Of a stretch of 64,000 nt of DNA, positions 6,597-59,156 are shown one piece after another. A program made the translations under genes and the position numbers. The stretch is from a virus (lineage: Duplodnaviria > Caudoviricetes): IMG/VR virus record IMGVR_UViG_3300028797_000004. The stretch is one strand, 5' to 3'. The notes beneath the pieces are model-generated. The model ran no database searches and was not told the DNA's origin. It saw nothing but the letters and a program-made list of their open reading frames with translations. Each line of letters starts with the position of its first letter. Position 1 is the stretch's first letter.

Positions 6597-7310
6597 ATGG
6601 ACGATTCAATCAAAGCTGTTGTTCTCGTGTCAGGCGGTGTGGACTCTGCTACTTGCCTCGGCATAGCTGTAGATAAGTATGGTGCTGAGAATGTAAAAGC
6701 TCTGGGTATTACATATGGTCAAAAGCATGAAATTGAACAAGAAAGTGCAGAGAAAATCTGCGCTTACTTTGGCGTAGAGCTCTACCACATAGATATTACT
6801 AACGTAATGCAATATAGCAACTGTGCATTGCTCAAGCAGAGTACAGAGGCGATCCCTGAGAAGTCTTATGCAGAGCAGATGGAAGAAAACGGCAGCGGTC
6901 GCGTTACTACATATGTACCTTACAGAAATGGTACAATGCTTTCAGTAGCAGCTGCTTTCGCTGATAGTGTATTTCCGAATCAAGCTGTTAAGCTCTTCTA
7001 CGGTGCCCATGCTGATGATGCAGCAGGTGAAGCTTACGCAGACTGCTCAGTAGCGTTTATCAAGGCGCAAGCAGCAGCTATCAAAATCGGCACATATGGA
7101 AACATAGAGCTTGAAGGCCCACTTGCAGAGATGAATAAGACTCAAGTAGTAGCTACAGGTCTTGCTCTTAAGAAGCCAGTACCTTATGAGCTGACTCATA
7201 GTTGCTACGAAGGTGTACCTGGTGGTTGTGGTAAGTGCGGCACATGTATTGACCGACTTGCAGCATTCAGAGCAAACGGACTCAACGACGACGGAACACT
7301 TAATAAGTGA
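6597..7310 (+). CDS. queC: 7-cyano-7-deazaguanine synthase QueC
   Basis: SGGVDS PP-loop, YGQKH, TYVPYRN, YADC, SCY...CGKCGTC. Confidence 0.95.
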   Translation: MDDSIKAVVLVSGGVDSATCLGIAVDKYGAENVKALGITYGQKHEIEQESAEKICAYFGVELYHIDITNVMQYSNCALLKQSTEAIPEKSYAEQMEENGSGRVTTYVPYRNGTMLSVAAAFADSVFPNQAVKLFYGAHADDAAGEAYADCSVAFIKAQAAAIKIGTYGNIELEGPLAEMNKTQVVATGLALKKPVPYELTHSCYEGVPGGCGKCGTCIDRLAAFRANGLNDDGTLNK

Positions 7311-7692: not shown

Positions 7693-8079
7693 ATGGCTTA
7701 TCTACGACAATTCAGACTATTTTCACACAATGATGCTCTCGCACATACTCGTGTTTTCAATATCAAAGACATACAAGAATACATGTGGCTACAGATCCCT
7801 GCAGTGCTCAGCCCATATATAGACCTCACTGGTGTGGTTAATATGCAAGTTGCAGACGGAGCTCTCCCTGATTTCACGGAGAAAATCACTCGTGAAGGAA
7901 GAAACTGCTGGCTAAAGATAGATTCCACATTGTTCAATACCGAAATAGGTCTGCACTTCTACAGGTTTGATTTTCTAAATCCTGTAACAGCTGAAGTCAT
8001 ACCTTTATACTTCGCATATTCACTACAGAATGATGATCCAGAGAAACCATACATCTATATGGACAGGAGTGAATCCTAA
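7693..8079 (+). CDS. Hypothetical protein (probably late)
   Basis: GGAGG RBS; ACCTACAATA motif upstream. Confidence 0.6.
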   Translation: MAYLRQFRLFSHNDALAHTRVFNIKDIQEYMWLQIPAVLSPYIDLTGVVNMQVADGALPDFTEKITREGRNCWLKIDSTLFNTEIGLHFYRFDFLNPVTAEVIPLYFAYSLQNDDPEKPYIYMDRSES

Positions 8080-9131
8080 TGCACAGATCAGTTACAGCTG
8101 CATTAAAATACTATAACATGAACTCAAGCGGTAAGCGCGTAGGCGACTGCTACAAACGAGCTCTTGCCCTTGCTTTCAGAAAAGATTATGACCAAGTCAA
8201 GAACGAACTCAACAAGATGGTTCGTAATGGTGAAGCTTATCAAAATAATGCGTACACTACGCTTGATAAATATATCAGACGTAACGGCGGTGTAGGTCTT
8301 GTAGACGGCACATATGACGCTTCGTCTGTAGAAAAGTTCTGTGAGGAGCATCCTACTGGCACCTATCTGCTTTTCACAAATAAAGATCCTAAAGCGTTAT
8401 TCAGCAATCATGTAGTTGCAATCATAGATGGTGATGCATACGATAGCTGGAATTCTTATCAGTCAAAAATTCATAGTGCTTTCAGTATAGATGCAGCGCC
8501 GAGGCAGCTTCATTATGATGATGTAAAGGACATGACTCCTGTCGTTGCCGAAAACATATATCCTTTACTTGAAGATTATATCACAAAGATGAACATGAAA
8601 TATGTCACAGACGATAGCATCATTACTCAGTTTTCTCTTAAATCAATAGAGGCTAAATCTGCTGATACAATTTCTATTTGGCTAAAATGTTTCTTTGATG
8701 AGGCTCGTGTACCGCTTAATTCTAAGTATTACAGTCACGGGTGGCAAGGCTATGATATTACTTTAAAGCTTGATATCAATCAGAACGCAGATGAAAACAC
8801 CAAACGACTCTGGCCTAAACTTAAACAGAAGGTGTATGATTGGACATATAACATTGCTTCTGAGCTCAAGAATGCTGCTCGTCTTGACAGTCTTGGCCAT
8901 AGATACTATGGAGATAAAGAAATTTTCAAGGCAGTACCTGATGAGCTGATCCCATATGTATACTCTGCCGATAGACTTGGTAGCTATAGTGAATACAATT
9001 ATGAAGTTACACTCAAAGGCTTAGACCAATGGGGCGATGACGGTAGACTCATAGATTTCTACGCAGACACAATCAAAGAAATGCGTCAGAAACTTGTGCG
9101 CTATCTTGAAACAGGATATAGTGATTATTAA
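8079..9131 (+). CDS. Protein with an N-terminal papain/C39-like Cys-His-Asp domain and a VTAA tag
   Basis: GDCYKRA...HVVAIIDGDAYDSWNS; starts MHRSVTAA. Confidence 0.5.
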   Translation: MHRSVTAALKYYNMNSSGKRVGDCYKRALALAFRKDYDQVKNELNKMVRNGEAYQNNAYTTLDKYIRRNGGVGLVDGTYDASSVEKFCEEHPTGTYLLFTNKDPKALFSNHVVAIIDGDAYDSWNSYQSKIHSAFSIDAAPRQLHYDDVKDMTPVVAENIYPLLEDYITKMNMKYVTDDSIITQFSLKSIEAKSADTISIWLKCFFDEARVPLNSKYYSHGWQGYDITLKLDINQNADENTKRLWPKLKQKVYDWTYNIASELKNAARLDSLGHRYYGDKEIFKAVPDELIPYVYSADRLGSYSEYNYEVTLKGLDQWGDDGRLIDFYADTIKEMRQKLVRYLETGYSDY

Positions 9132-10399: not shown

Positions 10400-10704
10400 G
10401 TGAACTTATGAGTTTCAACGAATTACAGAATCGATATATTCAACTATATAAGCTACTTCGCAATTACATATGGGAATATGACATTGTAGAGCTCATCGCT
10501 GATCTTGAGGTGTTAACATTCACAGCTTTCGCAGATAAGGAAGAGCTCAAGAAAGCACTTGATGCGCTTGAAAGAGCAATACGCTTCACAGATGTGTGGA
10601 AGCAAGACGAGCAGCTGCAAGAACAGTTTGGTGCATTCAGAGATGCGCTTGATTGTGATACAGCAATTCCGCTCAAAACATTCCAAGGAGTGAACGCAGT
10701 ATGA
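10396..10704 (+). CDS. Hypothetical protein
   Basis: Coupled ORF with RBS. Confidence 0.55.
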   Translation: MSELMSFNELQNRYIQLYKLLRNYIWEYDIVELIADLEVLTFTAFADKEELKKALDALERAIRFTDVWKQDEQLQEQFGAFRDALDCDTAIPLKTFQGVNAV

Positions 10705-10892
10705 ATACAATGAGAATAAAGAAAAGACCAGTTACAGCTGCTACGCAAAAGACAGCTAACTACGATGAAGCAATTTCATATATACAGTCAGCAATTGAAG
10801 CTCTCGGCATGGAGTCAGGAAAAGACGAAGCTGCAAGAGACGCTATTGCTAATCTGAGTGTAATCTTACTTGATTTGAAAACTGCAAAATAA
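10701..10892 (+). CDS. Small tagged protein (IKKRPVTAA)
   Basis: GGAG RBS; basic leader plus VTAA. Confidence 0.6.
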   Translation: MNTMRIKKRPVTAATQKTANYDEAISYIQSAIEALGMESGKDEAARDAIANLSVILLDLKTAK

Positions 10893-21821: not shown

Positions 21822-21886
21822 GAATCGTAAATAATTGATTAATTTTCTGAAAAACTATTGATTTCACCCCCAGAAGATGCTATAAT
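21822..21886 (+). promoter_or_regulatory. Host sigmaA-type early promoter, copy 1
   Basis: TTGATT-17 bp-TATAAT with extended TG; 44 bp (21822-21865) identical to 51014-51057. Confidence 0.85.
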
Positions 21887-25052: not shown

Positions 25053-25459
25053 ACGTATCAACTATGATTCTGCAAGCGGTGATTACAATTGCCTCGGCAA
25101 TAATCACCACCGTATTACTCCCGCTGCTTGCGCAATGGCTTACATCTAAAACAACTAACCAGAAGCTTCAAACTGCTATTCGTGATTTAACACAGACAGT
25201 AGCTACAGTTGTTGATTGCACTGAGCAGACAATGGTTTCACAACTCAAGGCTGATAACAGATGGAACTACGAAACACAATCTCAGGTGCTGAACTACGCA
25301 GTAGAGCACATAATTGAGAACCTTTCAACATCAACTACAAAGTGGCTTGAAGATAATTCTACAAATATTACAGCAACTGTACAGCAGTATGTTGAAGCTT
25401 ATATATTTTCAAAGAAACAGGAGGGTACATCTAATGAAGATAACTCGAAAAACACCTGA
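25049..25459 (+). CDS. Holin (LL-H-like)
   Basis: Single N-terminal TM helix, V...EQ pattern, C-terminal VEA. Confidence 0.6.
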   Translation: MNVSTMILQAVITIASAIITTVLLPLLAQWLTSKTTNQKLQTAIRDLTQTVATVVDCTEQTMVSQLKADNRWNYETQSQVLNYAVEHIIENLSTSTTKWLEDNSTNITATVQQYVEAYIFSKKQEGTSNEDNSKNT

Positions 25460-26564
25460 GCAGCCGCTCGATCAGCAGTTTCCAGATTACGCAGAAGAAG
25501 AGCTTCTGGACACAATCATTTATCCGTTTGAGCTTATCGCTAATGTGAACGCTCGCGGAGATGTAACATATGAAACTAAGGGCTTTGGCTCCAATCTTGA
25601 TGATGAGGAGTATGGTAACTGGTACTGCGAGAAGTATCCTGGTTTAGAGATTGCTACTGCTGACGATGTTGCGGATGCAATTGACCAGCTTATCGTCAAC
25701 ACAGATTCATACAATGAAATTTCAGGTACAGGTGAATATCAACTCACAGGTACTGCATACATAGTTATCAAGACTGACCTCGGTTTCTATGCTGACATAG
25801 AGGAGTCCGATATCACAAATTCTGAAGCAGAGGCAGATTCAGAAATTGACCTTGACGAATCTTACATCGAAGACTTCAAAGTAGTGAAGCTAGGTACTAG
25901 TGTAGAGTCTGCTAAGAAGCTAGATAATGTTGACTATGATGTGATATATGCAGCCGACGGTGCAGATGACGAATACGAACCTTATACAGGTGAGCATGAC
26001 GAATACGAAGATGTCTGGGACAGCATCGCTGATATAGATCAAGAATTCACATCAGCTAATACTTCAATCAACTCAAGCAAACTGCCAGCATTATTCAGCA
26101 TGGTTGAATTTGATCCTGAAACCGTCAATGTAGACTATGGTGGAGGACGATTCGACAACGTAGCTGATTATCTCACTGATTTTGATGTAGTAAATTTAGT
26201 TATAGATCCATTCAATCGTAACAAGAAACATAATCGTGATGCGATCAACCTTATTAGAGATCACGGCGGTGCGGACTCGGCTACGTGTTCTAATGTTCTG
26301 AATGTAATCAAGGAATCAGAAAATAGACGTCAAGTTCTTGAAAACATGAAGAAACTTGTCAAACCCGGTGGTAAGATTTACATCACAGTTTATGAAGGTG
26401 ATGGTACAGGGGAAGAAGGTGTAACTTCTTCTGGTTATCAGCTTCGCAGAAAGACAAAAGAGTATCTTGATGAAATTCGTGAAGTATTTCCTGATGCTGA
26501 ACGAAAAGGTAAGCTGATCTCAGCTACAAATTCTGGTAAGATACCTAACACACCTACATTATGA
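25434..26564 (+). CDS. Acidic N-terminal domain plus class I SAM-dependent methyltransferase
   Basis: VDYGGGRFD, IDPFNR, SNVLNVIKE..R, LVKPGG. Confidence 0.75.
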   Translation: MKITRKTPEQPLDQQFPDYAEEELLDTIIYPFELIANVNARGDVTYETKGFGSNLDDEEYGNWYCEKYPGLEIATADDVADAIDQLIVNTDSYNEISGTGEYQLTGTAYIVIKTDLGFYADIEESDITNSEAEADSEIDLDESYIEDFKVVKLGTSVESAKKLDNVDYDVIYAADGADDEYEPYTGEHDEYEDVWDSIADIDQEFTSANTSINSSKLPALFSMVEFDPETVNVDYGGGRFDNVADYLTDFDVVNLVIDPFNRNKKHNRDAINLIRDHGGADSATCSNVLNVIKESENRRQVLENMKKLVKPGGKIYITVYEGDGTGEEGVTSSGYQLRRKTKEYLDEIREVFPDAERKGKLISATNSGKIPNTPTL

Positions 26565-35460: not shown

Positions 35461-36225
35461 ATGTTTGTGTCCGAGTCATTTTGCTCAATTGACGGTGAAG
35501 GCGTTAGAGCAGGACAAAAAGCCGTGTTCATACGTTTCGCAGGTTGTAACATTCGTTGCGAATACTGTGACACCAAATACTCGCTTGCTGAATCGCAAGC
35601 TAATGCAGCATACACATGCGCTGCTGATGTAGCTGAAGCAGTAACAAAATTCTGCGTAGAAGGTGTAGTGAATAACATCACAATCACAGGTGGTGAACCT
35701 TTGCTATATCCGGATGATATCTGCGCTATACTTGACCAGCTAGATCAAACACAATTTGCGTTCAGTATCAATATTGAAACAAATGGCACTATCAGCCCAG
35801 TTGAGTTCATTGAGAAGTACAAGAGGACAAGTTTCGCTCACTGCTTACTCAATGATTTGTTCTTCACTTTTGATATCAAAACTTATTCGGCAGGTGAAGA
35901 TGCAAAGGCAGCTTGTATGCAGGGTGATAGTTTACTTCCTGTTATTGCAAGCTATTCACCTTACATAAACACTTTCACAAGAAAGTATAATGACGTAATC
36001 AAAGCTGTAGTTGGTTCTCGAGAGGATCTTGATTATATTCGCAAGATCTACACATCATGGATCACAAGACCTCATGAGTACCAATGGTACATCTCGCCAG
36101 TATTTGGCAAGATAGAGCCTTGTGATTTAGTTGAGTATGTGCTCACACACAATGATTGTGCAGCATGGCGAGTTCAAATTCAGATGCATAAAATCATATG
36201 GAACAGTGATAAGCGAGGCGTATAA
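35461..36225 (+). CDS. queE: 7-carboxy-7-deazaguanine synthase QueE (radical SAM)
   Basis: ESFCSIDGEG, FIRFAGCNIRCEYCDT, TGGEPLL, IETNGT, QMHKIIW. Confidence 0.92.
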   Translation: MFVSESFCSIDGEGVRAGQKAVFIRFAGCNIRCEYCDTKYSLAESQANAAYTCAADVAEAVTKFCVEGVVNNITITGGEPLLYPDDICAILDQLDQTQFAFSINIETNGTISPVEFIEKYKRTSFAHCLLNDLFFTFDIKTYSAGEDAKAACMQGDSLLPVIASYSPYINTFTRKYNDVIKAVVGSREDLDYIRKIYTSWITRPHEYQWYISPVFGKIEPCDLVEYVLTHNDCAAWRVQIQMHKIIWNSDKRGV

Positions 36226-36226
36226 C

Positions 36227-36688
36227 ATGAAGTTCTATATTCATGCAATGTCTGATGCTAGGAGAAAAATTGAGTCAACTTTGCGTGACGCTACTCCGAA
36301 GATAATCGAACACATTGCAAAATTGATATTGATGCCTGATAGTGAGTCTCGCAATCATTGGGAGAAAGAAATTGTCACATTTATCAGCAAAGTTTCTACA
36401 CTGAAAGGTAGCAATAAATGGCCAACTGCAAAGCAGATATTTAGCTGGACATATGGTATTGATCAAGATCTGATTCAACGACCAGCTTGGGTTAAGGTGT
36501 ATATGCGTAACATTGCACGAGATGAGGGCTGCGAGTTTGATTCAAGTCGAGATTACTCTACCATATTAGATTATATTTGCTATCATTATTTTACGTGGCT
36601 GTCAGAGCAGCTGAGTCAACAAGGCATCATAGATCATCAGGAAGCTTATGTGCTTCTTGATGATTTGCTTGCAGATTATAGTTTATGA
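36227..36688 (+). CDS. DUF29-like protein, paralogue 1 (tag MKFYIHA)
   Basis: HIAKL...SRNHWEKEI; clear similarity to 53196 and 58707. Confidence 0.6.
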   Translation: MKFYIHAMSDARRKIESTLRDATPKIIEHIAKLILMPDSESRNHWEKEIVTFISKVSTLKGSNKWPTAKQIFSWTYGIDQDLIQRPAWVKVYMRNIARDEGCEFDSSRDYSTILDYICYHYFTWLSEQLSQQGIIDHQEAYVLLDDLLADYSL

Positions 36689-49700: not shown

Positions 49701-50018
49701 ATGAAGTTATATATTCGTGCAGCTACACTGACGCCTAAAGATGTGAAGCGCATGTACGATGCTGGTGAGTTAGAAAATCACAAAGGCTATGAAGTTGATG
49801 TGCTGAATAGAGCTGGTGGACTTCTTACTCACAATTATCTTGACTGCTTCACATATCAAGGTAAATATTATATCTACTGTGATTTACATGGCTGGACGTA
49901 TGCTAGAGGTGGTGGCGAAGCTCGAAATAGGTTTCTGAAAGAGTTTGATAACAAGAATCAAGCTAATGCCTACTTCAAGAAGCTGGTTCAAGGTAGAAAG
50001 TACAGGAGGATAGAATGA
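49701..50018 (+). CDS. Tagged hypothetical protein (MKLYIRAA)
   Basis: RBS; shared leader. Confidence 0.65.
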   Translation: MKLYIRAATLTPKDVKRMYDAGELENHKGYEVDVLNRAGGLLTHNYLDCFTYQGKYYIYCDLHGWTYARGGGEARNRFLKEFDNKNQANAYFKKLVQGRKYRRIE

Positions 50019-50572
50019 AACTATATATCAAAGCTGCAACAACTCCTGCAGAATACAACAATCGTCAAACAGAAGTGGGCTCTACTTTGAAGACATACAA
50101 AGGTTCACCTATCAAGCGTAGCACTAAGTATGGTGTCGGTAAGGAGATCGGCGGAGACATATATGTACATAAGATGTATGCCGATGCTGTAGTGCCTGCA
50201 GATGTACTTGCTAGAGCGAAGTCAATCCTGCAGCAGAGCTATCCTGATTTTCAATATAACTGTATTCGCTATTCTCCGAAGACTGGAGCAGTATCGTTTC
50301 AAGAAGTTCCTGATTTTGACACAGCTCGTGAACCTAAAGTAGGTCACTATATTACAATACTTCCTGACGGCTCTGTAAAAACTGGATATTCACCTTATAT
50401 CTTTCATCACAAGTGGCTCTGGGTGAAAAATGATTATTCAGGTTTCGATGTAGCTGAAAGCTGGAATTGGTCACGTCAGTGGCTAAACACATTGCAAGAG
50501 ACATCAGACGGTAACGGTATTGGTCGCTGGAATGCCCAGCTAGATCGATACGGTCTACCGCATGATAATTAA
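50015..50572 (+). CDS. Tagged protein (MKLYIKAA) resembling the non-catalytic domain of phosphorothioation-associated methyltransferases
   Basis: VGKEIGGDIYVH...VSF...PDFD...EP...IFHHK..V. Confidence 0.5.
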   Translation: MKLYIKAATTPAEYNNRQTEVGSTLKTYKGSPIKRSTKYGVGKEIGGDIYVHKMYADAVVPADVLARAKSILQQSYPDFQYNCIRYSPKTGAVSFQEVPDFDTAREPKVGHYITILPDGSVKTGYSPYIFHHKWLWVKNDYSGFDVAESWNWSRQWLNTLQETSDGNGIGRWNAQLDRYGLPHDN

Positions 50573-50603
50573 GCGTATAAGGGTATGAGGTTGAAAAATT
50601 CAT

Positions 50604-50906
50604 ATGCATAAATCACATGATATAGGGACTGTTGAGGTGAATGTTATGTCTGAAATTTTAGTTATCAGCCCATACCACTATGCGCTTGCACAGAAAGTAG
50701 ACGACATTAAGCTGCGCAAATTCTGTGCACAAGACAATAACTACAACTTATACGCTATACAAGCTCTGCCTTATGAAGTTGCTGAGAAGATAAAAGGTCA
50801 ATCCTTTGACTTCGCTTACATTGACAACCATTATATTGATGAAGAGATTGCAGAGATTCGCTCACATATCACTGGTGAGCAGTACAAGCGTATTAAATTC
50901 TTTTGA
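50604..50906 (+). CDS. Hypothetical protein
   Basis: GAGGTG RBS before the internal MSEIL start. Confidence 0.5.
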   Translation: MHKSHDIGTVEVNVMSEILVISPYHYALAQKVDDIKLRKFCAQDNNYNLYAIQALPYEVAEKIKGQSFDFAYIDNHYIDEEIAEIRSHITGEQYKRIKFF

Positions 50907-51013
50907 CATCTTCCTGTTCATATTTGAACAATCTCCTTATTACTGAGGTATCGCAACCCCTGCGGTACCTCTCTTTTTGTAGTGGATCCGTCAAAGATTA
51001 ATGAACGATTAAT

Positions 51014-51078
51014 GAATCGTAAATAATTGATTAATTTTCTGAAAAACTATTGATTTCTCGCCTATGCGATGCTATAAT
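51014..51078 (+). promoter_or_regulatory. Host sigmaA-type early promoter, copy 2
   Basis: TTGATT-17 bp-TATAAT with extended TG; 44 bp identical to copy 1. Confidence 0.85.
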
Positions 51079-51132
51079 ATACTTGTAAACAAATTCACCT
51101 CATATTCTACTTTTGAAAGGTTGGTAGATCTT

Positions 51133-51369
51133 ATGAAACGAACAATTGCATTTTCTTCTCCCGAGACCGGATATCTTTCGAGTATGCCTATACTCACTTC
51201 TGAAGAATTCCAGTCTGCTAAGCTCAAGTATGTCTGCACCAGTTGGAATGCAGACCCGAAAGCAAATATCCACATATACAAGAAGCTTGATAGCTCTAAT
51301 GAATACGTCGGTGTCGAAGAAGCAGACATTGACGAAGCTATCGCAGCCATCAACATCTTGCTCAGCTAA
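51133..51369 (+). CDS. Early hypothetical protein
   Basis: First ORF after the early promoter. Confidence 0.55.
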   Translation: MKRTIAFSSPETGYLSSMPILTSEEFQSAKLKYVCTSWNADPKANIHIYKKLDSSNEYVGVEEADIDEAIAAINILLS

Positions 51370-51382
51370 GGAGGTAGGTCTT

Positions 51383-51745
51383 ATGTTAAAGAATTTAGTA
51401 CCTAGAGAGACTGTCGAGATCGTAGAGCACACAATCGAGTTCACAGAGAACGGCAGCGGATTTTCATTCAAGGCAACACCAACAGGCGAAGTCATTCTTG
51501 AGAACAAAGACCAGGAAGCAAATTATCAGTTTGCTATCGCTCACCCAGAGCTGTTCACAGATGAGTACAACAAGTTCCGCACAAGACGTCGTCACTACAC
51601 AGAAAATGCTCACGGTACTTGCACCTGCGGAGCTCAGGTAGAACTCTACAATCAGTATCAGGGAGCTTGTCAGTGTCCAAGATGCGACAGATGGTACAAC
51701 TTATTTGGGCAGGAACTTATATCCCCAGAGTACTGGGAGGACTAA
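51383..51745 (+). CDS. Early Zn-ribbon protein
   Basis: CTC...CPRC; GGAGG RBS. Confidence 0.6.
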   Translation: MLKNLVPRETVEIVEHTIEFTENGSGFSFKATPTGEVILENKDQEANYQFAIAHPELFTDEYNKFRTRRRHYTENAHGTCTCGAQVELYNQYQGACQCPRCDRWYNLFGQELISPEYWED

Positions 51746-51760
51746 TAGGAGGTAACAATC

Positions 51761-52228
51761 ATGAGGAGAGTAATGTTTTGGGACGACAATAGGTGCGTCA
51801 AGGTGGTCATGCTTGCAGGGTTCAACACTGATGAGTGTCTTAAGATGGCACATTTCTACTACGTGAATCTTCCTAACGACGAGCAGTTCAAGTATACAGA
51901 CATTCAAGTAGACCCTTTCGACTACGGTCGCATTGATGTATCTAAATCCTACAAGGAGTTCGGCAGTTCGCTGCTGAAAGCTATCAAGTGGCTCGACGAC
52001 AATGATTTCGAGGCTACACTTACAACGTACAACACCGATAGGGCTGTCTTTCGTGTTTATCGCAACGGTACAGAAGACGAGCTCACGCTTACTAATGCAG
52101 TACTCAATCCTACAAAGGTCAAAATCCTTGACTACATGGAGCAGTTCCTCAAGAGCTTCAAGATGAAGCAAGAGATTGAACGACTCAAAGCTGAGAAAGC
52201 TGCACGTGACGCTGCTAAGGAGGTCTGA
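51761..52228 (+). CDS. Early hypothetical protein
   Basis: GGAGG RBS. Confidence 0.6.
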   Translation: MRRVMFWDDNRCVKVVMLAGFNTDECLKMAHFYYVNLPNDEQFKYTDIQVDPFDYGRIDVSKSYKEFGSSLLKAIKWLDDNDFEATLTTYNTDRAVFRVYRNGTEDELTLTNAVLNPTKVKILDYMEQFLKSFKMKQEIERLKAEKAARDAAKEV

Positions 52229-52231
52229 CAT

Positions 52232-52468
52232 ATGAATATCAGAGAAGCTGAAGAAATGCTCGAGTACGAGCTCAGTGTCAAGCGCAGAGCGCTTGAATAC
52301 ATACAGGAGAATGCAGATGACTTCGACGATGACGAAGAAATCGACATGGACGAACTCTGCAGATCTATCGCAGAGGAAGACGAATACAACTTCCAGCGTA
52401 ACGAAGAAAATTCACTTCGTAACGCTTGGCAGCAGGATCTTATCGACATGTACCGCTTCGAGAGATAG
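52232..52468 (+). CDS. Small very acidic early protein (possible DNA mimic)
   Basis: DDFDDDEEIDMDE; GGAGG RBS. Confidence 0.55.
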   Translation: MNIREAEEMLEYELSVKRRALEYIQENADDFDDDEEIDMDELCRSIAEEDEYNFQRNEENSLRNAWQQDLIDMYRFER

Positions 52469-52478
52469 GAGGCAGCAT

Positions 52479-52727
52479 ATGAAAACTACAGTATACGTGA
52501 GCTTGATCACACCAAGCAGCAATCTTCGCATTGCTGAAATCGACAACGTGGAGCTCAAGTACGGCCAAGCTTTCTTCACCGAAGAGCAGTGGGCAGCAGT
52601 CAAGCAGGCGGAAGCAGCTAATACTCGCAACCTCAAAGGCTACTCTATCGAGTTTCACATTCCTGGCTGTACGCCACTCCAAGGTGTTCACTACCCGAGC
52701 ATGCAAAGACGAGGACAGGTGCGCTGA
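52479..52727 (+). CDS. Early hypothetical protein
   Basis: GGAGG RBS. Confidence 0.55.
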   Translation: MKTTVYVSLITPSSNLRIAEIDNVELKYGQAFFTEEQWAAVKQAEAANTRNLKGYSIEFHIPGCTPLQGVHYPSMQRRGQVR

Positions 52728-52800
52728 GGGGTCTACCTTCAGCGCTAACCTTTCATATTTACATACGAATCTCTAACAGAAAGTGAGGTATCACTCTAGT

Positions 52801-53181
52801 ATGAAAATGTACGTGAAAGCTGCTACTGATGAGCAGAATAAGTATAAGTCAAACCTGAAGAGTGCAGGCCCAAAGCTTCGCGCTGATATCAAGAAGCTTG
52901 AAAAAACACTCAAGGATGTACAGAAGAAGAAGGACGAGCTCAAAGCTCTCCTTGATTCAGCTGACATCATATATCCTACAGAGGAATACGACATCAAGAA
53001 CCCAGAAGATTTTGAGTGGTTCATGGACGAGAAGAGAACTTCTGATGACGAAGCAGACGAAATCTACAGCCAGTTTGACGAAGCAATGAAACTCGTTGAC
53101 GAGTATGACGAACTCGCAGACTATTTAGACAAGCTCAAAGATGCACTTGAGAAGCTCCCAAGTGATCTTGATCTTGATTAA
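52801..53181 (+). CDS. Tagged coiled-coil protein (MKMYVKAA)
   Basis: GAGG RBS; late motif upstream. Confidence 0.65.
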   Translation: MKMYVKAATDEQNKYKSNLKSAGPKLRADIKKLEKTLKDVQKKKDELKALLDSADIIYPTEEYDIKNPEDFEWFMDEKRTSDDEADEIYSQFDEAMKLVDEYDELADYLDKLKDALEKLPSDLDLD

Positions 53182-53195
53182 GAGGTGAGCCTTAC

Positions 53196-54200
53196 ATGAA
53201 ATGGTACATACAAGGTCAAGCTAAGAGCTCCAAAGATATTGAAAACACCCTCAAAGATCACATCACTGAGATAGAACTCAATTTCATAATGCTTGTGCTT
53301 GGTCCTGGTGTAAGTACTCGACATCACTGGAAGCAAGAAGTCTACGCACAGATACACGATGTACCAGTAACTAAGAAAAGTAAGCAATATCCTACAGAAG
53401 CTCAGCTTTACAAATGGCTGTACACTGATAATATTCCTGATTTTCAGGAACCTAAAAAGTTCAGAAAGTTGCTCAAGGCAATTTCTGATAAAGAAAAACA
53501 GCTCCCGAAACCTGGAGATGCTGAAGCGTTGCAAAAGCAAGTAATTGAGTACCTACATGAGTATTTCACTTGGCTTGCTGCTGCACTTTCAGAAGACGGC
53601 TACGTCACGCTTTCAGAAGTTGAGGAAGCACTTACACATATTTTAGAAAGTGGTGAAAACACAATGAAAAAATACATTAAATCTGATTCACTTGATGATC
53701 CTCGTGTATGGACTAAAGCACAGAGGGCAAAACTTATAGATCTGATCGACAAGTACTACGACGATGACTCAAAGTATGAGTATGTAGAAGAGGTGCTTGA
53801 GGAAGTATCCGGTCTAGATTTCGATGAGCTTGATGACAACGACTACGGTACTGGTGAAGGCTTCTACAAGCACTTCACATCAGAGCAGCTGGCTGAAGCT
53901 TTCAAAAAGCTCAGATCTGCATACGGATCAATTGACGGCTGCTCTTCTGTAACAGCTGCTTCCGCAAGCAATGTTGAAGCTAGAGTTCAAGAGTATGTAG
54001 AAGGCGTGCTTCATGATGCACTTGAAAATCTTGAAAACACAGACCTAACAGCTAATGTAGTGCAGCAGAAGGTTGGCGGATACAACAGCGATTGGTGTAA
54101 TGAAGAGGCTCTCCCATCAGGTACAATGGCTAAGTTTGACAAAGCTGTAAAAGCTCTTGCAAAGCTGTATGCAGAAACTTTATTCTGGAATGAACCTTGA
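53196..54200 (+). CDS. DUF29-like paralogue 2 fused to further tagged modules
   Basis: MKWYIQG start, RHHWKQEV; internal MKKYIKS at 53664 and VTAAS. Confidence 0.6.
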   Translation: MKWYIQGQAKSSKDIENTLKDHITEIELNFIMLVLGPGVSTRHHWKQEVYAQIHDVPVTKKSKQYPTEAQLYKWLYTDNIPDFQEPKKFRKLLKAISDKEKQLPKPGDAEALQKQVIEYLHEYFTWLAAALSEDGYVTLSEVEEALTHILESGENTMKKYIKSDSLDDPRVWTKAQRAKLIDLIDKYYDDDSKYEYVEEVLEEVSGLDFDELDDNDYGTGEGFYKHFTSEQLAEAFKKLRSAYGSIDGCSSVTAASASNVEARVQEYVEGVLHDALENLENTDLTANVVQQKVGGYNSDWCNEEALPSGTMAKFDKAVKALAKLYAETLFWNEP

Positions 54201-54217
54201 CTGAGAGGTGAGCTTAT

Positions 54218-54553
54218 ATGAATATAAAGCGTAAACCTATAACTGCTGCAAGCCGCGGCGCATCAGGCGCTGCAGCCATAGCTAAGAAAGATGCAGAAAT
54301 GGCAATATATCTTGCTCAGCAAGGTGAAACCGACTGCGAACTTGAAATAAACAGCAAGCTTGACAACGATCGTTATTGGGCAGTGTTCAACAGAATGCTT
54401 AAAGAGGCAGATGTTTACTACACTATTGAAAGCAATGACGCAGAGTACCTTGAGGGTACAGGTTTAAATTACTATTACTTGCGCATTTGGACACGTGATT
54501 CAGCTGATGAGCTATTTGCTCCGAATGCAGAGAAATATGCCCCAAGGTGGTGA
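54218..54553 (+). CDS. Tagged hypothetical protein (IKRKPITAAS)
   Basis: GAGGTG RBS. Confidence 0.65.
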   Translation: MNIKRKPITAASRGASGAAAIAKKDAEMAIYLAQQGETDCELEINSKLDNDRYWAVFNRMLKEADVYYTIESNDAEYLEGTGLNYYYLRIWTRDSADELFAPNAEKYAPRW

Positions 54554-54559
54554 AAACAG

Positions 54560-54772
54560 ATGAAACTATACATTAAAGCTTCTGCAGATCCGAAGCAGAA
54601 GAAAAACAAAGCGCTCAGAGAGTTTGATCAGCAGCTTCTAGACGAAGCATTGTCAAAGCTGAATAAAGTATATGAGTACAACTATTCAGAGTCTTCACAT
54701 GATAAGGTGTCACGTCGCCTTGAAGTGATCATGAAGAAGATTAAAGAGCTCAAGGCTCTGGAAATCGATTAG
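54560..54772 (+). CDS. Tagged small protein (MKLYIKAS)
   Basis: RBS; shared leader. Confidence 0.65.
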   Translation: MKLYIKASADPKQKKNKALREFDQQLLDEALSKLNKVYEYNYSESSHDKVSRRLEVIMKKIKELKALEID

Positions 54773-54794
54773 ATCTAGATGGAGGTCAAGAGCT

Positions 54795-55325
54795 ATGAAA
54801 CTTTCAGCTAAAGACAAGAAGACATTTGGGGCTATAACTGCTTCAACTGATGTATACTCACATGATATACTGAAGATGCAAGGCAACTGGGCAGCTCCTA
54901 AGAAAATTGAACAAGCTCTCAGAGATGAAATCTCATCAGATGATACAGTAATTGAGGTCAAAGCTACATATACACCTGAGCGCGATACGACAATCATAGC
55001 ATTCAAGTATATTGACAAAAGTGCAACGAAAGACTTCGCAGCTGTGAAGTCTTCGACAACAATCAATGCTGCTTATGGGTCAATTACAGACCCTAACAAC
55101 GTCACAATTTCTGAGCTCATGAGTCGTATTGACGTAGAGCAACCAGACCTCTGGGACGATGCTGTCAAGTATCTTGATAAATGGCTTGATAATCCTGAAG
55201 ATGTATGGGCAGATGACTGCCCGGACTGGGAAATTGCTTCCTGGGGTATAGGCTCAGACAACATTATAACTACATTAAAATCTGCCCTTGAGACTGGTGT
55301 AGTTGAAGACATGTATACATCCTGA
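54795..55325 (+). CDS. Tagged two-module protein (AITAS, INAA)
   Basis: GGAGG RBS. Confidence 0.6.
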   Translation: MKLSAKDKKTFGAITASTDVYSHDILKMQGNWAAPKKIEQALRDEISSDDTVIEVKATYTPERDTTIIAFKYIDKSATKDFAAVKSSTTINAAYGSITDPNNVTISELMSRIDVEQPDLWDDAVKYLDKWLDNPEDVWADDCPDWEIASWGIGSDNIITTLKSALETGVVEDMYTS

Positions 55326-55368
55326 AGTCTTGGTGTAAGGGTATCAATTGAAGGGAGGAGCGATATAA

Positions 55369-55701
55369 GTGTTAAAAGGCTTCATTATTAAGCGTGCACG
55401 AGTTGAAATCATATCTCGTGCAGAATACGACGGCGCAGATATTCGGTTACCTGACACCAGAGAGCTGTTTAAGTCCATAGACGAGGTCTTAGATTACATC
55501 GACTCTAGTGAAGAGCTATACGCTACTGGGTGGGGAATTCCTACTCGTCTATATGACTACCACATTGAAGAAAAAGTCAATCATGTAGTCCTGCGTACAT
55601 CTTCTACTGACGCTGATGTAACTGTATCATTTCAAATGGTCATGCCCTCATGTACTATAACTCTTGATGAGTTAAACAATATTCAATATTTATTTAAGTG
55701 A
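55369..55701 (+). CDS. Hypothetical protein
   Basis: GGAGG RBS. Confidence 0.5.
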   Translation: MLKGFIIKRARVEIISRAEYDGADIRLPDTRELFKSIDEVLDYIDSSEELYATGWGIPTRLYDYHIEEKVNHVVLRTSSTDADVTVSFQMVMPSCTITLDELNNIQYLFK

Positions 55702-55934
55702 CAAAGGCGAGCTTCGAGACGAACGAGCTAGAGTATACTTCAAAGGTCAAATCATCACAGGTCATCCGCAGACGTTACAAGTGCTGTAATCACACACATA
55801 CATGCCCTCAGCGTTGAAGTCTAACACTGAGGGCAAACCTATTATACATACATAGACGTGAAACACATCTTTGTGTGTTCTCACAACGTGATAAACACAC
55901 TTACAAATACAGATCAATAAGGAGTGATAACAAT

Positions 55935-56480
55935 ATGTTCACACCACTTTCAATGGGTACAAATCATATGCTGGCTCAGGACAACATGGTTCCTATAACA
56001 ACAAATAACTTTGAGGTTCGCTTGTTCAACCTAGACGGCAGCCAGCCTTCCGAATCAAACATCTTAACACTCTACACAGATGAAATCGGAGATGTCCAGG
56101 AAGAACAAGACATCATATCTGTTCACTATGGTAACGGTGTACAGAAGTTCCCTTCAAAGGTTACTTTCGCAGATGTAGACTGGACACTGAATTACTTCTG
56201 CTCACCTAATGTAGCTGATGCTATTCATGCATGGAGAGAGAAAGTATTCGAGTTCGAGTCACAGAAGATGGGCTTACCAAGCCAATATATGAAGAACGCA
56301 TATTTTATCAGATATGACGGTCAAGGTAACCCGCGTAGCATCATATATCTACCTTGTGTATGGCCTGGCGCAGTCCGTGAGACAGGTGGAAATCAGCAGG
56401 GCGGCGAAGTTGTAAAAATTTCATTCCCGCTGGTGGTTTCCAGAATGCAGTACATCAAGCCAGAGGACTACAGAGGTTGA
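55935..56480 (+). CDS. Tail tube protein (T4 gp19-like)
   Basis: NNFEV...KFPSKVTFADV...W...YMKNA...YDGQG.....VWP; late motif upstream. Confidence 0.75.
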   Translation: MFTPLSMGTNHMLAQDNMVPITTNNFEVRLFNLDGSQPSESNILTLYTDEIGDVQEEQDIISVHYGNGVQKFPSKVTFADVDWTLNYFCSPNVADAIHAWREKVFEFESQKMGLPSQYMKNAYFIRYDGQGNPRSIIYLPCVWPGAVRETGGNQQGGEVVKISFPLVVSRMQYIKPEDYRG

Positions 56481-56582
56481 CCACATAATCGTTATTAAAT
56501 TTGAAAACTATAAAGCGCAGCTTTCAGGCTGCGCTTTTGTGTTTCACACAGCTATACACAATGTAAGGGAGTTGATCCAGAT

Positions 56583-56810
56583 ATGATCAAAGGTACAAAC
56601 TATGATGTGCTCATGAAGAAAAACTTAGCCGATTTGCTAGAGAGCATGAATACAAACCTCATGGAACGACAAGAGGAAGAATATAGCTCACATAGAGTAT
56701 GCATCATGGACGCGCTCAATGTGAACTCACCTCTCTACTGTCATGAATTCAAAAGTTGCTTTGATTGTATCTGCAACTTCTTACATTCAGAAAGTAAGGG
56801 GAGATTATAA
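56583..56810 (+). CDS. Small Cys-rich protein
   Basis: C-terminal C..CI pattern. Confidence 0.5.
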   Translation: MIKGTNYDVLMKKNLADLLESMNTNLMERQEEEYSSHRVCIMDALNVNSPLYCHEFKSCFDCICNFLHSESKGRL

Positions 56811-57145
56811 TGAACGCAAGTATAGACCCAATGTGGCTCGAGCAACTCAAACAAGTAACAATCAAAGGCGAGAAGTTTCGCTCGCACATGATAAACCTTG
56901 ATGCAGGACAATTTGATAATCTGATATATGGAGGTACAAACAGTATACGTGTACCTAAGCAGGATTTCAAACTCGGAGATTCAGTGGTGCTAGTACGCAC
57001 TAAGAATAACAGAACTACACCTCAGAGGTGCGTAGCACTCATAGAACAGATTACAGATGATGATTGCTTCAAACGATTACAACTTGAAATAGTATCTGTT
57101 TATACAGAGCTTGGGCAGAATACCTTCCCCCTCCCCCACTTCTAA
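56810..57145 (+). CDS. ASCH/DUF3850-like protein, C-terminus altered by the IS insertion
   Basis: H.I.L...F..LI.G......DFKLGD; removing the IS gives the end ...VYTELATYVS*. Confidence 0.5.
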   Translation: MNASIDPMWLEQLKQVTIKGEKFRSHMINLDAGQFDNLIYGGTNSIRVPKQDFKLGDSVVLVRTKNNRTTPQRCVALIEQITDDDCFKRLQLEIVSVYTELGQNTFPLPHF

Positions 57146-58589
57146 GCGAAGCGAAAGTGGGGGATGAATGCCGATTGTTTTTTTTACTGAAACTATTGAC
57201 AATCAGTAAAATATATGCTATAATAGATACATAGGGAATGTCCTAAATCTAAAAGGAAGGGGAAAAACCATGTATCTAACAGTAAAGCAAAAAGTAAAGC
57301 ATCTGTCAAAGGGAGAATACAGCATTTTGAGAGAATTGTGTCATACAGCAAAAAATCTTGCCAATGAAGCAATCTATAATGTCCGTCAGTATTACTTCAC
57401 AGAGGGAGAATATCTGAAATACGAAAAGAATTACGCATTGCTGAAAGACAGTCCTAATTACAAAATACTCAACTCCAATATGGCACAGCAGATTTTGAAA
57501 GAAGTAGACGGTTCATTCAAAAGCTTTTTCGGACTTCTGAAACCTGCAAAGAAAGGCAAGTATTCTTTCAGAGACTGCAAATTACCGCATTATCTCCCAA
57601 AAGACGGATTTGTTACGCTTGTGATAGGATTTGTCAGGCTGAATGGAAATAAGCTGATTCTTCCATATTCCAATACATTCAAGAAAACGCACAAGCCTGT
57701 TGAAATCAAAATACCGCCGATACTTGCTGACAAGCATATCAAAGAAATCAGAATCATTCCGAAATCAGGAGCAAGGTTCTTTGAAATTCAGTATACTTAT
57801 GAAGCTGAATGTATTCAAAGAAATCTTAACAAAAACAATGCACTTGCTCTGGATTTAGGTGTGAATAATCTTGTGACTGCTGTATCAAGTGAGGGCAGAA
57901 GCTTCATCATTGACGGCAGAAAGCTGAAATCTGTCAATCAATGGTTTAACAAAGAAAATGCACGGCTGCAAGGTATCAAAGACAGGCAGGGTGATAAAAG
58001 AAGAACAACAAACCGTCAGAAAATCTTAGCTGACAAAAGAAACAGACAAGTCAATGACTATATGAGTAAAACTGCAAGAAAAATCATCGATTACTGTATT
58101 GCTCATGATATTGGAACGCTTGTAGTCGGATATAATGAAACATTTCAGCGAAATTCTGGCATGAACAAGCGTAACAATCAGAATTTTGTCAATATTCCGT
58201 ATGGTAAACTGCGTTCCAAACTGGAATATCTTTGTGAACTGAACGGAATTGTTTTTGTCAAGCAGGAAGAAAGCTATACTTCACAAGCATCTTTCTGGGA
58301 CAGGGATAATATTCCTGTCTATAATGCAGACAATCCGCAGTCCTATAAATTCAGCGGAACACGCATACGAAGAGGATTGTACAAAACTGCTGACGGAATA
58401 TTGCTTAACGCGGATGTCAATGGTGCATTGAATATTTTAAGAAAAAGTAGCGTTGTGGACTTAACAGTCCTATACGGTAGTGGCGAAGTGGATACGCCTG
58501 TAAGAATAAGGGTTGCCTGATTTCAGGTGGAAACTTAAATACCAATCTTCTTACGAAGCCCCTGCCTCTTTAGGCGGGGGAGAGTTCAC
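57104..58589 (+). mobile_element. IS1341-like (tnpB-only) IS200/IS605 element
   Basis: Follows TTTAT; left-end hairpin TCCCCCACTT/AAGTGGGGGA; own TTGACA-17-TATAAT promoter; right-end hairpin then TTCAC. Confidence 0.8.
57270..58520 (+). CDS. tnpB: TnpB (VVG/EESYTS clade)
   Basis: ALDLGVNN, LVVGYN, QEESYTS, NADVNGALNI. Confidence 0.92.
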   Translation: MYLTVKQKVKHLSKGEYSILRELCHTAKNLANEAIYNVRQYYFTEGEYLKYEKNYALLKDSPNYKILNSNMAQQILKEVDGSFKSFFGLLKPAKKGKYSFRDCKLPHYLPKDGFVTLVIGFVRLNGNKLILPYSNTFKKTHKPVEIKIPPILADKHIKEIRIIPKSGARFFEIQYTYEAECIQRNLNKNNALALDLGVNNLVTAVSSEGRSFIIDGRKLKSVNQWFNKENARLQGIKDRQGDKRRTTNRQKILADKRNRQVNDYMSKTARKIIDYCIAHDIGTLVVGYNETFQRNSGMNKRNNQNFVNIPYGKLRSKLEYLCELNGIVFVKQEESYTSQASFWDRDNIPVYNADNPQSYKFSGTRIRRGLYKTADGILLNADVNGALNILRKSSVVDLTVLYGSGEVDTPVRIRVA

Positions 58590-58706
58590 ACAGAGCTTGC
58601 AACTTATGTGAGCTAATGCGAGATTAAACGAGATGAAATATTTCAATGTGTATCGGTATCGTTATATACTACGAGTATAATATTTCAAATAAAGGAGGTT
58701 TCTAAT

Positions 58707-59156
58707 ATGAAACTTTACATTCGTGCAATGTCAGAGACAAAGCAGAAAGTCGAACAAGATTTTTACCATCGTGCTGACGTGACGTTAGAGCATATCATGA
58801 AATTAGTTCTTATGCCTGATCATGAATCTCGGAATCATTGGCGTAAAGAGATCGCTACACAATTTTTCAAGCTCCCTAAATTCAAAGGCAGCAATAAGTA
58901 TCCAACTGAGAAACAGATATTTGATTGGACTTACAATAAATGGGCAGATGAAATGCATGATCCTAGATGGATGCAGAATATGATGCTTCGTCTATGTAAA
59001 GACTATCGTGTTATTTCGCCTTACACTGTTAAAGAATTTGCAGTTAAGGTGAACCGTATTTGCAAATCATATTTTGCATATGCAGCGCAGCAGCTACATC
59101 TGAATCAAACACTACCGTCTGCAGATACATATGCTTTTCTAGACGAGGTACTGTGA
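58707..59156 (+). CDS. DUF29-like paralogue 3 (MKLYIRAM)
   Basis: HIMKLVLMPDHESRNHWRKEI...KGSNKYPT, near-collinear with 36227. Confidence 0.65.
   Translation: MKLYIRAMSETKQKVEQDFYHRADVTLEHIMKLVLMPDHESRNHWRKEIATQFFKLPKFKGSNKYPTEKQIFDWTYNKWADEMHDPRWMQNMMLRLCKDYRVISPYTVKEFAVKVNRICKSYFAYAAQQLHLNQTLPSADTYAFLDEVL

Follow-up and report, generated by a model that had tools for sequence, protein, structure and literature searches.

Why should otherwise unrelated proteins of one bacteriophage begin with the same seven residues? The question is raised by a 64,000-nucleotide stretch of the virus record IMGVR_UViG_3300028797_000004 (Duplodnaviria; Caudoviricetes; this whole stretch is hereafter the window, and positions are given in it unless the genome is named), where an MKLYIKA-like leader forms the N-terminus of many unrelated proteins. 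A first-pass annotation of this DNA had taken the leader for a portable label that is cut by a protease and loads a diverse protein cargo into the phage head. Its capsid-targeting and cleavage part is supported by what we found, namely that the motif at the end of the leader recurs in the scaffold and the capsid propeptide, that the last residue of the leader tracks the type of the phage protease, and that the leader is portable. We estimate at about 0.7 the probability that these tags are protease-clipped capsid-address leaders similar to the capsid-targeting sequence (CTS) of phage T4.

The record is complete at 148,711 bp and has direct terminal repeats; its bases 21082-85081 are the window. 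All genes lie on the + strand and have Firmicutes-type Shine-Dalgarno sequences, and the window holds the terminase, portal-like and sheath genes of a myovirus. Neither megablast nor tblastn against cultured phages returned a close cultured relative; with Streptococcus phage vB_SagM-GXN1, Bacillus phage HSE3 and Listeria phage LIS04, identity in the capsid protein does not exceed 27%.

An enriched and portable leader

The N-termini from which the proposal started, MKLYIRAA (49701), MKLYIKAA (50015), MKMYVKAA (52801), MKWYIQGQ (53196), MKLYIKAS (54560), MKLYIRAM (58707) and MKFYIHAM (36227), are all present in the sequence, and the ATG start at 36227 is backed by a 153-residue homolog with an identical kind of start (P0004). 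Writing this Y-type tag as M-[KR]-x-[YFW]-[IV]-x-[AGS] and taking the internal Met positions of the proteome as background, we counted it at 10 of the 201 N-termini of the genome versus 2 of 813 internal positions (Fisher P=3.5e-6). Position-specific frequencies predict 0.41 occurrences (Poisson P=2.5e-11). Seven of the ten tagged open reading frames (ORFs) lie inside the window. Basic leaders ending in [IV]-[TK]-A-[AS] occur on about 6-8 further ORFs of the 201-gene genome, and the four reported earlier, MHRSVTAA (8079), ..KKRPVTAA (10701), ..KRKPITAAS (54218) and ..FGAITAS (54795), were all retrieved. Within the first 20 residues, the core [IV][TKRNQ]A[AST] shows a 5-fold enrichment (P=3e-6). 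Isolated internal copies such as TINAAY and RIIAAV, which the first pass had placed at apparent domain junctions, are no more frequent than expected by chance.

The conservation resides in the peptide. The mixed use of synonymous codons noted in the first pass extends to Leu (TTA, CTA, CTT, TTG and CTC), Arg (CGT, AGA and CGC) and Tyr (both codons), and the DNA upstream of the tagged genes is unrelated except for the ribosome-binding site. When the tags were stripped, blastp linked only five Y-tagged proteins, i.e. the N-terminal domain of the 53196 protein, those at 58707 and 36227, and two others starting at genome positions 9578 and 10056 (E 1e-9 to 1e-39). It detected no similarity beyond the tag for seven other Y-type-tagged proteins (five matching the above pattern, and two with hybrid leaders, g119853 and g122337). 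The claim that the tagged proteins are unrelated holds therefore for these seven and fails for the five paralogs, three of which are among the seven window examples. With the paralogs counted as one, eight families have the tag as their sole common element. The tags are real, enriched, under selection at the peptide level, carried by unrelated proteins and portable.

The same motif in the head machinery

The relevant head genes lie outside the window. They encode a 466-residue protease-scaffold fusion (genome 109523-110923; phrog_207, E 7e-17) and a gp23-family capsid protein (genome 110940-112388; PF07068, E 1.9e-16). The model of the protease domain (predicted local distance difference test, pLDDT, 64) has T4 gp21 as its best match (5JBL; E 1.6e-4, template modelling (TM) score 0.55-0.58) and matches herpesvirus proteases weakly (E 0.08-0.9, TM 0.3-0.4). 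Its catalytic His and Ser motifs, GHPEDP and GISIRG, are invariant, and its score against Pfam PF03420 is 18.7 bits, below the cut-off of 27. The C-terminal half of the fusion is a coiled-coil scaffold, and a PDB profile search with the whole protein returned coiled-coil noise only.

Both the scaffold and the capsid protein carry the site of the tag. The scaffold halves of all seven members of the clade hold 9-13 copies of [IV]-x-[AS]-[AST] versus about 2 expected from composition (P≤5e-4 each), i.e. a 4-5-fold enrichment, and no excess of the T4-type [LIV]-x-E was found in these seven scaffold halves. The pattern is reversed in the scaffolds of GXN1, HSE3 and LIS04 (17-25 [LIV]-x-E versus 8-14 expected). 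At an overall identity of 40%, the seven scaffolds conserve a site at the junction with the protease ([IV]AA↓[ST]; arrows mark the known or predicted cuts), one in mid-scaffold (TV[TV]A↓S) and one about 50 residues from the C-terminus ([IV]TA↓S). The N-terminal propeptide of the capsid protein contains the conserved tandem SI[TN]AG-TSITA[AS] and therewith conserved ITAG and ITAA, and an I-[MT]-[GA]-A site stands just ahead of the conserved ATNT..NIAA arm. The tag ends in the very motif that is over-represented in the scaffold and the propeptide. A predicted complex of the protease domain with residues 1-40 of the 50015 protein had a score of 0.01, which bears neither way.

The C-terminal tail of the scaffold (L007:5740-5830) repeats the start of the capsid N-arm (L007:6150-6200), both outside the window (GATNTSSIAAYPD versus GATNTTNIAARPD). 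This mimicry recurs in each relative with a sequence of its own; a common docking pocket or protease site may underlie it.

The end of the leader follows the protease type

Known gp21-type proteases cut after Glu, at [LI]xE in T4 and at AXE in SPN3US. A single-protein scan and the exact MKLF[IV]TEFA pattern in IMG/VR gave no Glu-type relatives, and a scan of metagenomes gave 120 matches, mostly chance, with one true member on a 2.7-kb contig. A second pattern located G001 and G002. The IMG/VR contig G001 (207 kb) encodes a protease-scaffold protein with the T4-like GVSSRG, and a capsid propeptide with ALME↓S, RIAE↓S and MLNE↓ATN. Glu-ended tags (MKLYIEE, MKLYIQE, MKLIIE, MKLFIKE and MKLLVE) stand at 12 of its 293 N-termini and Ala-type tags at none; the proteins concerned are unrelated, and their genes are mostly clustered beside the head genes. 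The present genome has 10 A-ended and 0 E-ended tags. In the paralogous family common to both phages (hereafter the cargo family), the junction residue is Glu in five of five G001 copies, and Ala, Gly or Ser in five of five copies here. Of all our tests, we regard this comparison of tag end and protease type as the strongest.

This phage, G001 and T4 have a register in common: residue 4 is aromatic, P3 is [IVL], P2 is free to vary, and P1 is either Glu or a small residue. In the T4 CTS, MKTYQEFIAE, residue 4 is Tyr, and every tag here has an aromatic residue there. The T4 sequence shares M-K-x-Y and the P3 Ile with our tags and differs from them in length and at P1, seven residues being too short for a test of homology. 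Targeting in T4 depends on residues 4 and 7, and processing on residues 8 and 10 (PMC9026906). The leader is best read as a T4-style one whose P1 has changed from Glu to Ala, because the near-identical tag of G001 ends in Glu, and because the cargo-family junction is Glu there and Ala, Gly or Ser here.

The proteases also differ in sequence. The A-type enzymes lack the two Arg that are invariant in the PTRNxR motif of the E-type, and SIRG replaces SSRG in them. Alignment of the protease (L007:4523-5032) with those of L026 (GXN1), L031, L032 and L155 displays replacements at a few invariant positions, PTRNxR to xxNNNxM, GEADHP to GFLGHP and SSRG to SIRG. These positions are candidate specificity determinants, and would be consistent with a changed S1 pocket. 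As read from the sequences, the end of the tag switches from Glu to Ala between lineages together with the motif of the scaffold and the capsid.

The leader in relatives and in the cargo family

Relatives were fetched from IMG/VR by means of the 50015 protein, the capsid protein and the long-tag pattern. They carry runs of genes starting MKRYI[KR][SA]A.., the long form M..[KR][KR]FTKYPSNY[IV]xA.. or MKIxKRx[IV]TA[AS], which often adjoin the protease and capsid genes; in a 16-kb stretch of one relative, 10 of 26 genes are tagged. No Y-type tag was found in five fetched stretches of unrelated contigs (113 genes) or in GXN1 (237 genes). GXN1 has four small ORFs starting MRL[VI][RK]L[TN]E (L026:14939-17060) and a scaffold rich in L-[LV]-E-S, and this distant relative could be a cultured model of how leaders guide proteins into the capsid of a Firmicutes phage. 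Homologs of the 50015 protein retain the tag in close relatives (MKRYIRAA, MKRYIRTA), and those of two unrelated phages start without it, at the conserved body.

A profile of the cargo family found 750 representatives, of which we surveyed the leaders and junctions of the best 150. The junction is of the Ala-type in 60 of these, with the consensus M-K-[IR]-Y-I-[RK]-[AGS]↓[MF]-[SA], and of the Glu-type in at least 22 (e.g. MKLFVTE↓FAE). Other members have longer or tandem leaders (MKRYIKSIYA↓MS, ..YPKYPIFA↓MAD), and the few leaderless ones start exactly at the predicted P1' (MS). Among these 150 the leaders vary (short, tandem or long) and the junction is conserved. No cultured carrier of the family was found by megablast or tblastn against cultured phages. 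The AlphaFold2 model of the 58707 protein (100 homologs) is a confident helical bundle (pLDDT 94.7, predicted TM score 0.87), in which the first ten residues are the sole low-confidence block (mean 63), and the predicted fold leaves the tag outside.

The function of the family gave no significant Foldseek match. Its best VIA row (3fcn) has a Z score of 7.0 and a root-mean-square deviation of 3.2 over 117 residues, a range common for helical bundles. The label DUF29-like given in the first pass is at best a weak lead, PF01724 giving no match at E≤1 and the Atlas placing DUF29 on 16-17% of the members of look-alike clusters (scores 0.87-0.88). The 50015 protein had no lead in the Atlas.

Proposed mechanism and alternatives

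We propose that the M-K-x-Y part of the leader, common to T4 MKTYQEFIAE and the Glu-type MKLYIEE, docks the protein to a prohead core built from the protease-scaffold fusion, and that the gp21-fold prohead protease of the phage recognises the three closing residues of the leader, [IV]-x-[A/G/S], as its cleavage motif. This enzyme would cut after a small residue, with I/V at P3, A/G/S at P1 and A/S/T/M at P1', and the mature cargo would stay in the head and leave it together with the DNA when the phage infects. The basic leaders, MKIxKRx..[IV]TA↓[AS], would imitate the start of the major capsid protein, with the same site at their end. Cutting at the tag and packaging are proposed by analogy with T4, and we hold the injection of the tagged proteins to be less probable than the capsid-address role itself. 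Leaders of the T4 kind being already known, the new element is the Ala/Gly/Ser-type rule with its coordinated change in tag, scaffold and capsid propeptide.

A more ambitious account, to which we give slightly less than even odds, joins these elements. The gp21-type protease of the clade and all its substrates (scaffold, propeptide and about 16 leaders) would have switched together from Glu to Ala/Gly/Ser; M-K-x-Y would be an ancient capsid-loading code, an address constant from T4 to these Firmicutes phages; and host sensors may have driven the switch. If true, its result is a Y-[IV]-[KR]-A↓[AS] rule and a protease-scaffold layout as in herpesviruses. The drivers may be sensors of Glu-type prohead proteases such as the cyclic-oligonucleotide-based antiphage signalling system (CBASS). 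Bacterial CBASS senses the cutting of an L-P-E loop by the prohead protease (PMC12991175), so that a changed protease specificity could, speculatively, be an escape route.

Several points weigh against the capsid-address role. Cleavage, packaging and ejection draw on analogy, and neither the phage nor any close relative of it is in culture. Being simple, the [IV]-x-A-[AST] core must match many internal stretches of ordinary proteins by chance. The excess of [LIV]xE in the scaffold of G001 is weak (14 versus 9.1, P=0.045). Since the seven A-type phages form one clade, the contrast between Glu and Ala amounts essentially to one evolutionary switch plus sets of paralogs. The retention of the leader across hundreds of cargo-family representatives would fit a conserved functional N-terminus as well. 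Finally, some tagged genes follow a host-type, sigma-70-like promoter predicted at 51050, and would not necessarily be co-expressed late with the head genes.

The same observations can be read in other ways. The leaders might be prohead-protease substrates that act as a late timing or activation switch on proteins that are neither packaged nor injected; the match between tag and protease motif fits this equally well, some tagged genes are possibly transcribed from an early, host-type promoter, and T4 gp21 can cut a non-virion protein in the cell, the CD-NTase of CBASS (PMC12991175). A timing switch leaves unexplained, however, why M-K-x-Y is conserved upstream of P3-P1 in Ala-type, Glu-type and T4 leaders alike (residue 4 serving targeting in the latter), why the tagged genes of relatives cluster beside the head genes, and why the basic leaders mimic the N-terminus of the capsid protein. 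We consider it improbable, if the strongest of the competitors.

Two further explanations are each less probable by a wide margin. MK starts are common in Firmicutes-type genes, and the leader is widely conserved in the paralog family, as would be expected of a translation-start or recombination cassette, or of an integral N-terminal element of related domains, that is not a signal for processing. We disfavour this explanation, given that there is no conservation at the nucleotide level (synonymous codons vary and upstream regions differ), that the bodies are unrelated and leaderless homologs exist, that only the tag is modelled with low confidence in the predicted fold, that an internal copy is kept in the fused 53196 protein, and that the last residue switches with the scaffold motif. 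Another enzyme or host machinery might instead read the tag, its likeness to the scaffold sites being coincidental, a reading to which we attach an equally small weight. Firmicutes phages do borrow the host protease Prp, which cleaves the leaders of their capsid and scaffold proteins, as in staphylococcal phage 80alpha. The Prp motif (..NLQFF↓A) is unlike the tag, however, and as regards a radical S-adenosylmethionine (SAM) maturase, the only radical-SAM gene of the genome is QueE-like and belongs to the 7-deazaguanine pathway. Moreover, the scaffold and capsid propeptide of the phage hold the motif in excess and the end of the tag covaries with the type of the phage protease, which a host enzyme would not explain.

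If the capsid-address role is true, a label of seven residues suffices to mark a protein for head loading in a gut or rumen Firmicutes phage, and about 16-18 probable injected proteins can be listed, most of them without a known function and likely to serve in host takeover or against host defences. It would also provide a rule to find injected cargo in uncultured phages, and a handle for packaging foreign proteins, like the T4 CTS. Were the M-K-x-Y code general, the injected proteome of thousands of uncultured phages would be readable from sequence. The apparent change from Glu to Ala in a gp21-fold protease and its matching substrates would be a natural case of co-evolving protease specificity.

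Comparison with known systems

In T4, the CTS of IPI, IPII, IPIII and Alt, which gp21 removes, is likewise a short leader on unrelated fast-evolving proteins; it likewise starts with M-K-x-Y and ends in [IVL]-x-P1, its motif occurs also in the scaffold and the capsid propeptide, and it works with a gp23-family capsid protein and a gp21-fold protease. The differences are that the CTS has 10 residues and the tags 7, with 16-residue FTKYPSNY and basic forms here in addition; that P1 is Glu in T4 versus a predicted Ala, Gly or Ser; and that about 16-18 genes are tagged here versus 4-5 in T4. Moreover, the present protease is fused to the scaffold, the host is of the Firmicutes type, and the system is known from sequence alone.

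The assemblin of herpesviruses offers a second parallel. In human cytomegalovirus the assemblin sites are YVKA↓S and VNA↓S. Here as there the protease is fused N-terminally to the scaffold, with one site at the junction and another near the C-terminus, before the tail, both sites of this layout being x-Ala↓Ser; the match is by motif only. The predicted rule takes the form aromatic-[IVL]-x-Ala↓Ser/Ala. The tags, Y-[IV]-[KRQ]-A↓[AS], resemble the assemblin R-site, and the scaffold and capsid sites, [IV]-[TN]-A↓[SAG], resemble the M-site, which read YLQA↓T and VQA↓S, respectively, in pUL26 of pseudorabies virus (PMC4498786). Herpesvirus assemblin (S21), a Ser-His-His protease, belongs to the fold clan of gp21 and is thus a distant relative whose rule the new one resembles. 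The present protease is nevertheless of the gp21-type by structure (5JBL as top match; E 0.08 and TM 0.38 for herpesvirus enzymes), and a set of leader-tagged cargo is known in no herpesvirus. The likeness in specificity may be convergent.

In the giant phages SPN3US and phiKZ, too, many head-internal proteins (ejection or inner-body proteins) are cleaved at a simple motif of three residues by a gp21-like enzyme (gp245 and gp175; A-X-E and S/A/G-X-E), and their N-terminal propeptides are presumed to direct them into the head. These propeptides, however, are long and mutually dissimilar, with Glu at P1, whereas one short, near-identical tag is reused here. Phage 80alpha, like ours a Firmicutes phage, has a common short N-terminal leader on its head proteins that is removed before Ala or Ser. 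That system depends on the host Prp and another motif, and the leader is found only on capsid and scaffold; here the protease is encoded by the phage, and the tag stands on many non-structural-looking proteins.

The tagged genes of the window

All genes of this section are on the + strand. The main cluster opens with a 105-residue ORF (49701..50018; MKLYIRA↓A), which has a promoter-like motif, GAATCGTTATTAAAT, 33 nt upstream, and continues with a 185-residue ORF whose body is phrog_16075 (50015..50572; MKLYIKA↓A) and a 126-residue acidic coiled-coil ORF (52801..53181; MKMYVKA↓A). The 334-residue protein encoded at 53196..54200 has three modules. Its residues 1-156 comprise the tag MKWYIQG↓Q and a helical cargo-family domain; a second, internal tag, MKKYIKS, starts at residue 157, the proteome having just one other internal-Met match; and an SVTA↓AS site follows at residue 252. 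From its sequence the protein reads as a fusion of two tagged modules, and no stand-alone homolog of the second module was found in the fetched loci. Downstream are a 111-residue ORF with the basic leader MNIKRKPITA↓AS (54218..54553), a 70-residue ORF tagged MKLYIKA↓S (54560..54772) and a 176-residue ORF with the leader MKLSAKDKKTFGAITA↓ST (54795..55325). The cargo family is further represented by a 149-residue helical member (58707..59156; MKLYIRA↓MS) and a 153-residue paralog (36227..36688; MKFYIHA↓MS).

Among the ORFs lying farther upstream, one of 63 residues (10701..10892) has the basic leader MNTMRIKKRPVTA↓AT. The 350-residue ORF starting MHRSVTA↓AL (8079..9131; phrog_3754) is a weaker case, its leader being short, and the 376-residue ORF at 25434..26564, which starts MKITRK as in the basic-leader type, is a speculative member. 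Its acidic N-terminal half is followed by VIYA↓AD (residues 171-176) and then by the presumed methyltransferase domain of the first-pass annotation, of which there remains a weak methyltransferase-like region scoring below the Pfam cut-off. The label Cys-protease-like, which the same annotation had given to one cargo protein, was supported by no search.

Outside the window, four adjacent genes at genome 119853-123143 have the leaders MKRYIKHRAVTA↓AT, MKITRRSVPVKA↓A, MNIKRRKKAVTA↓ST and MKLYKKSMSISA↓S. The proteins, highly acidic beyond the leader, have more sites internally and may therefore be cargo polyproteins.

Promoters and neighbouring genes

The + strand carries 17 copies of the phage-specific motif GAATCGTTAT(T/A)A, of which 12 are intergenic; the positions include 49668, 56487, 22760, 26613, 27664, 31731 and 37017 of the window. 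One of the copies precedes the first tagged gene (49701) by 33 nt and another precedes the tRNA operon, and the motif looks like a class of phage promoters. Host-type sigma-70-like promoters with an extended -10 element (TTGAyTTC..N..TGCTATAATA) were recognised at 21858, 51050 and 57196, and early transcription of the tagged genes 52801-55325 could start from that at 51050.

A transposase/TnpB-like gene (57270-58520; phrog_506, E 7e-40) stands between tagged genes and has a sigma-70-like promoter of its own. The genome also contains QueC-like (6597-7310), QueE-like (35461-36225) and QueD-like (genome 11227-11691) genes, from which it appears that the phage probably makes a 7-deazaguanine DNA modification.

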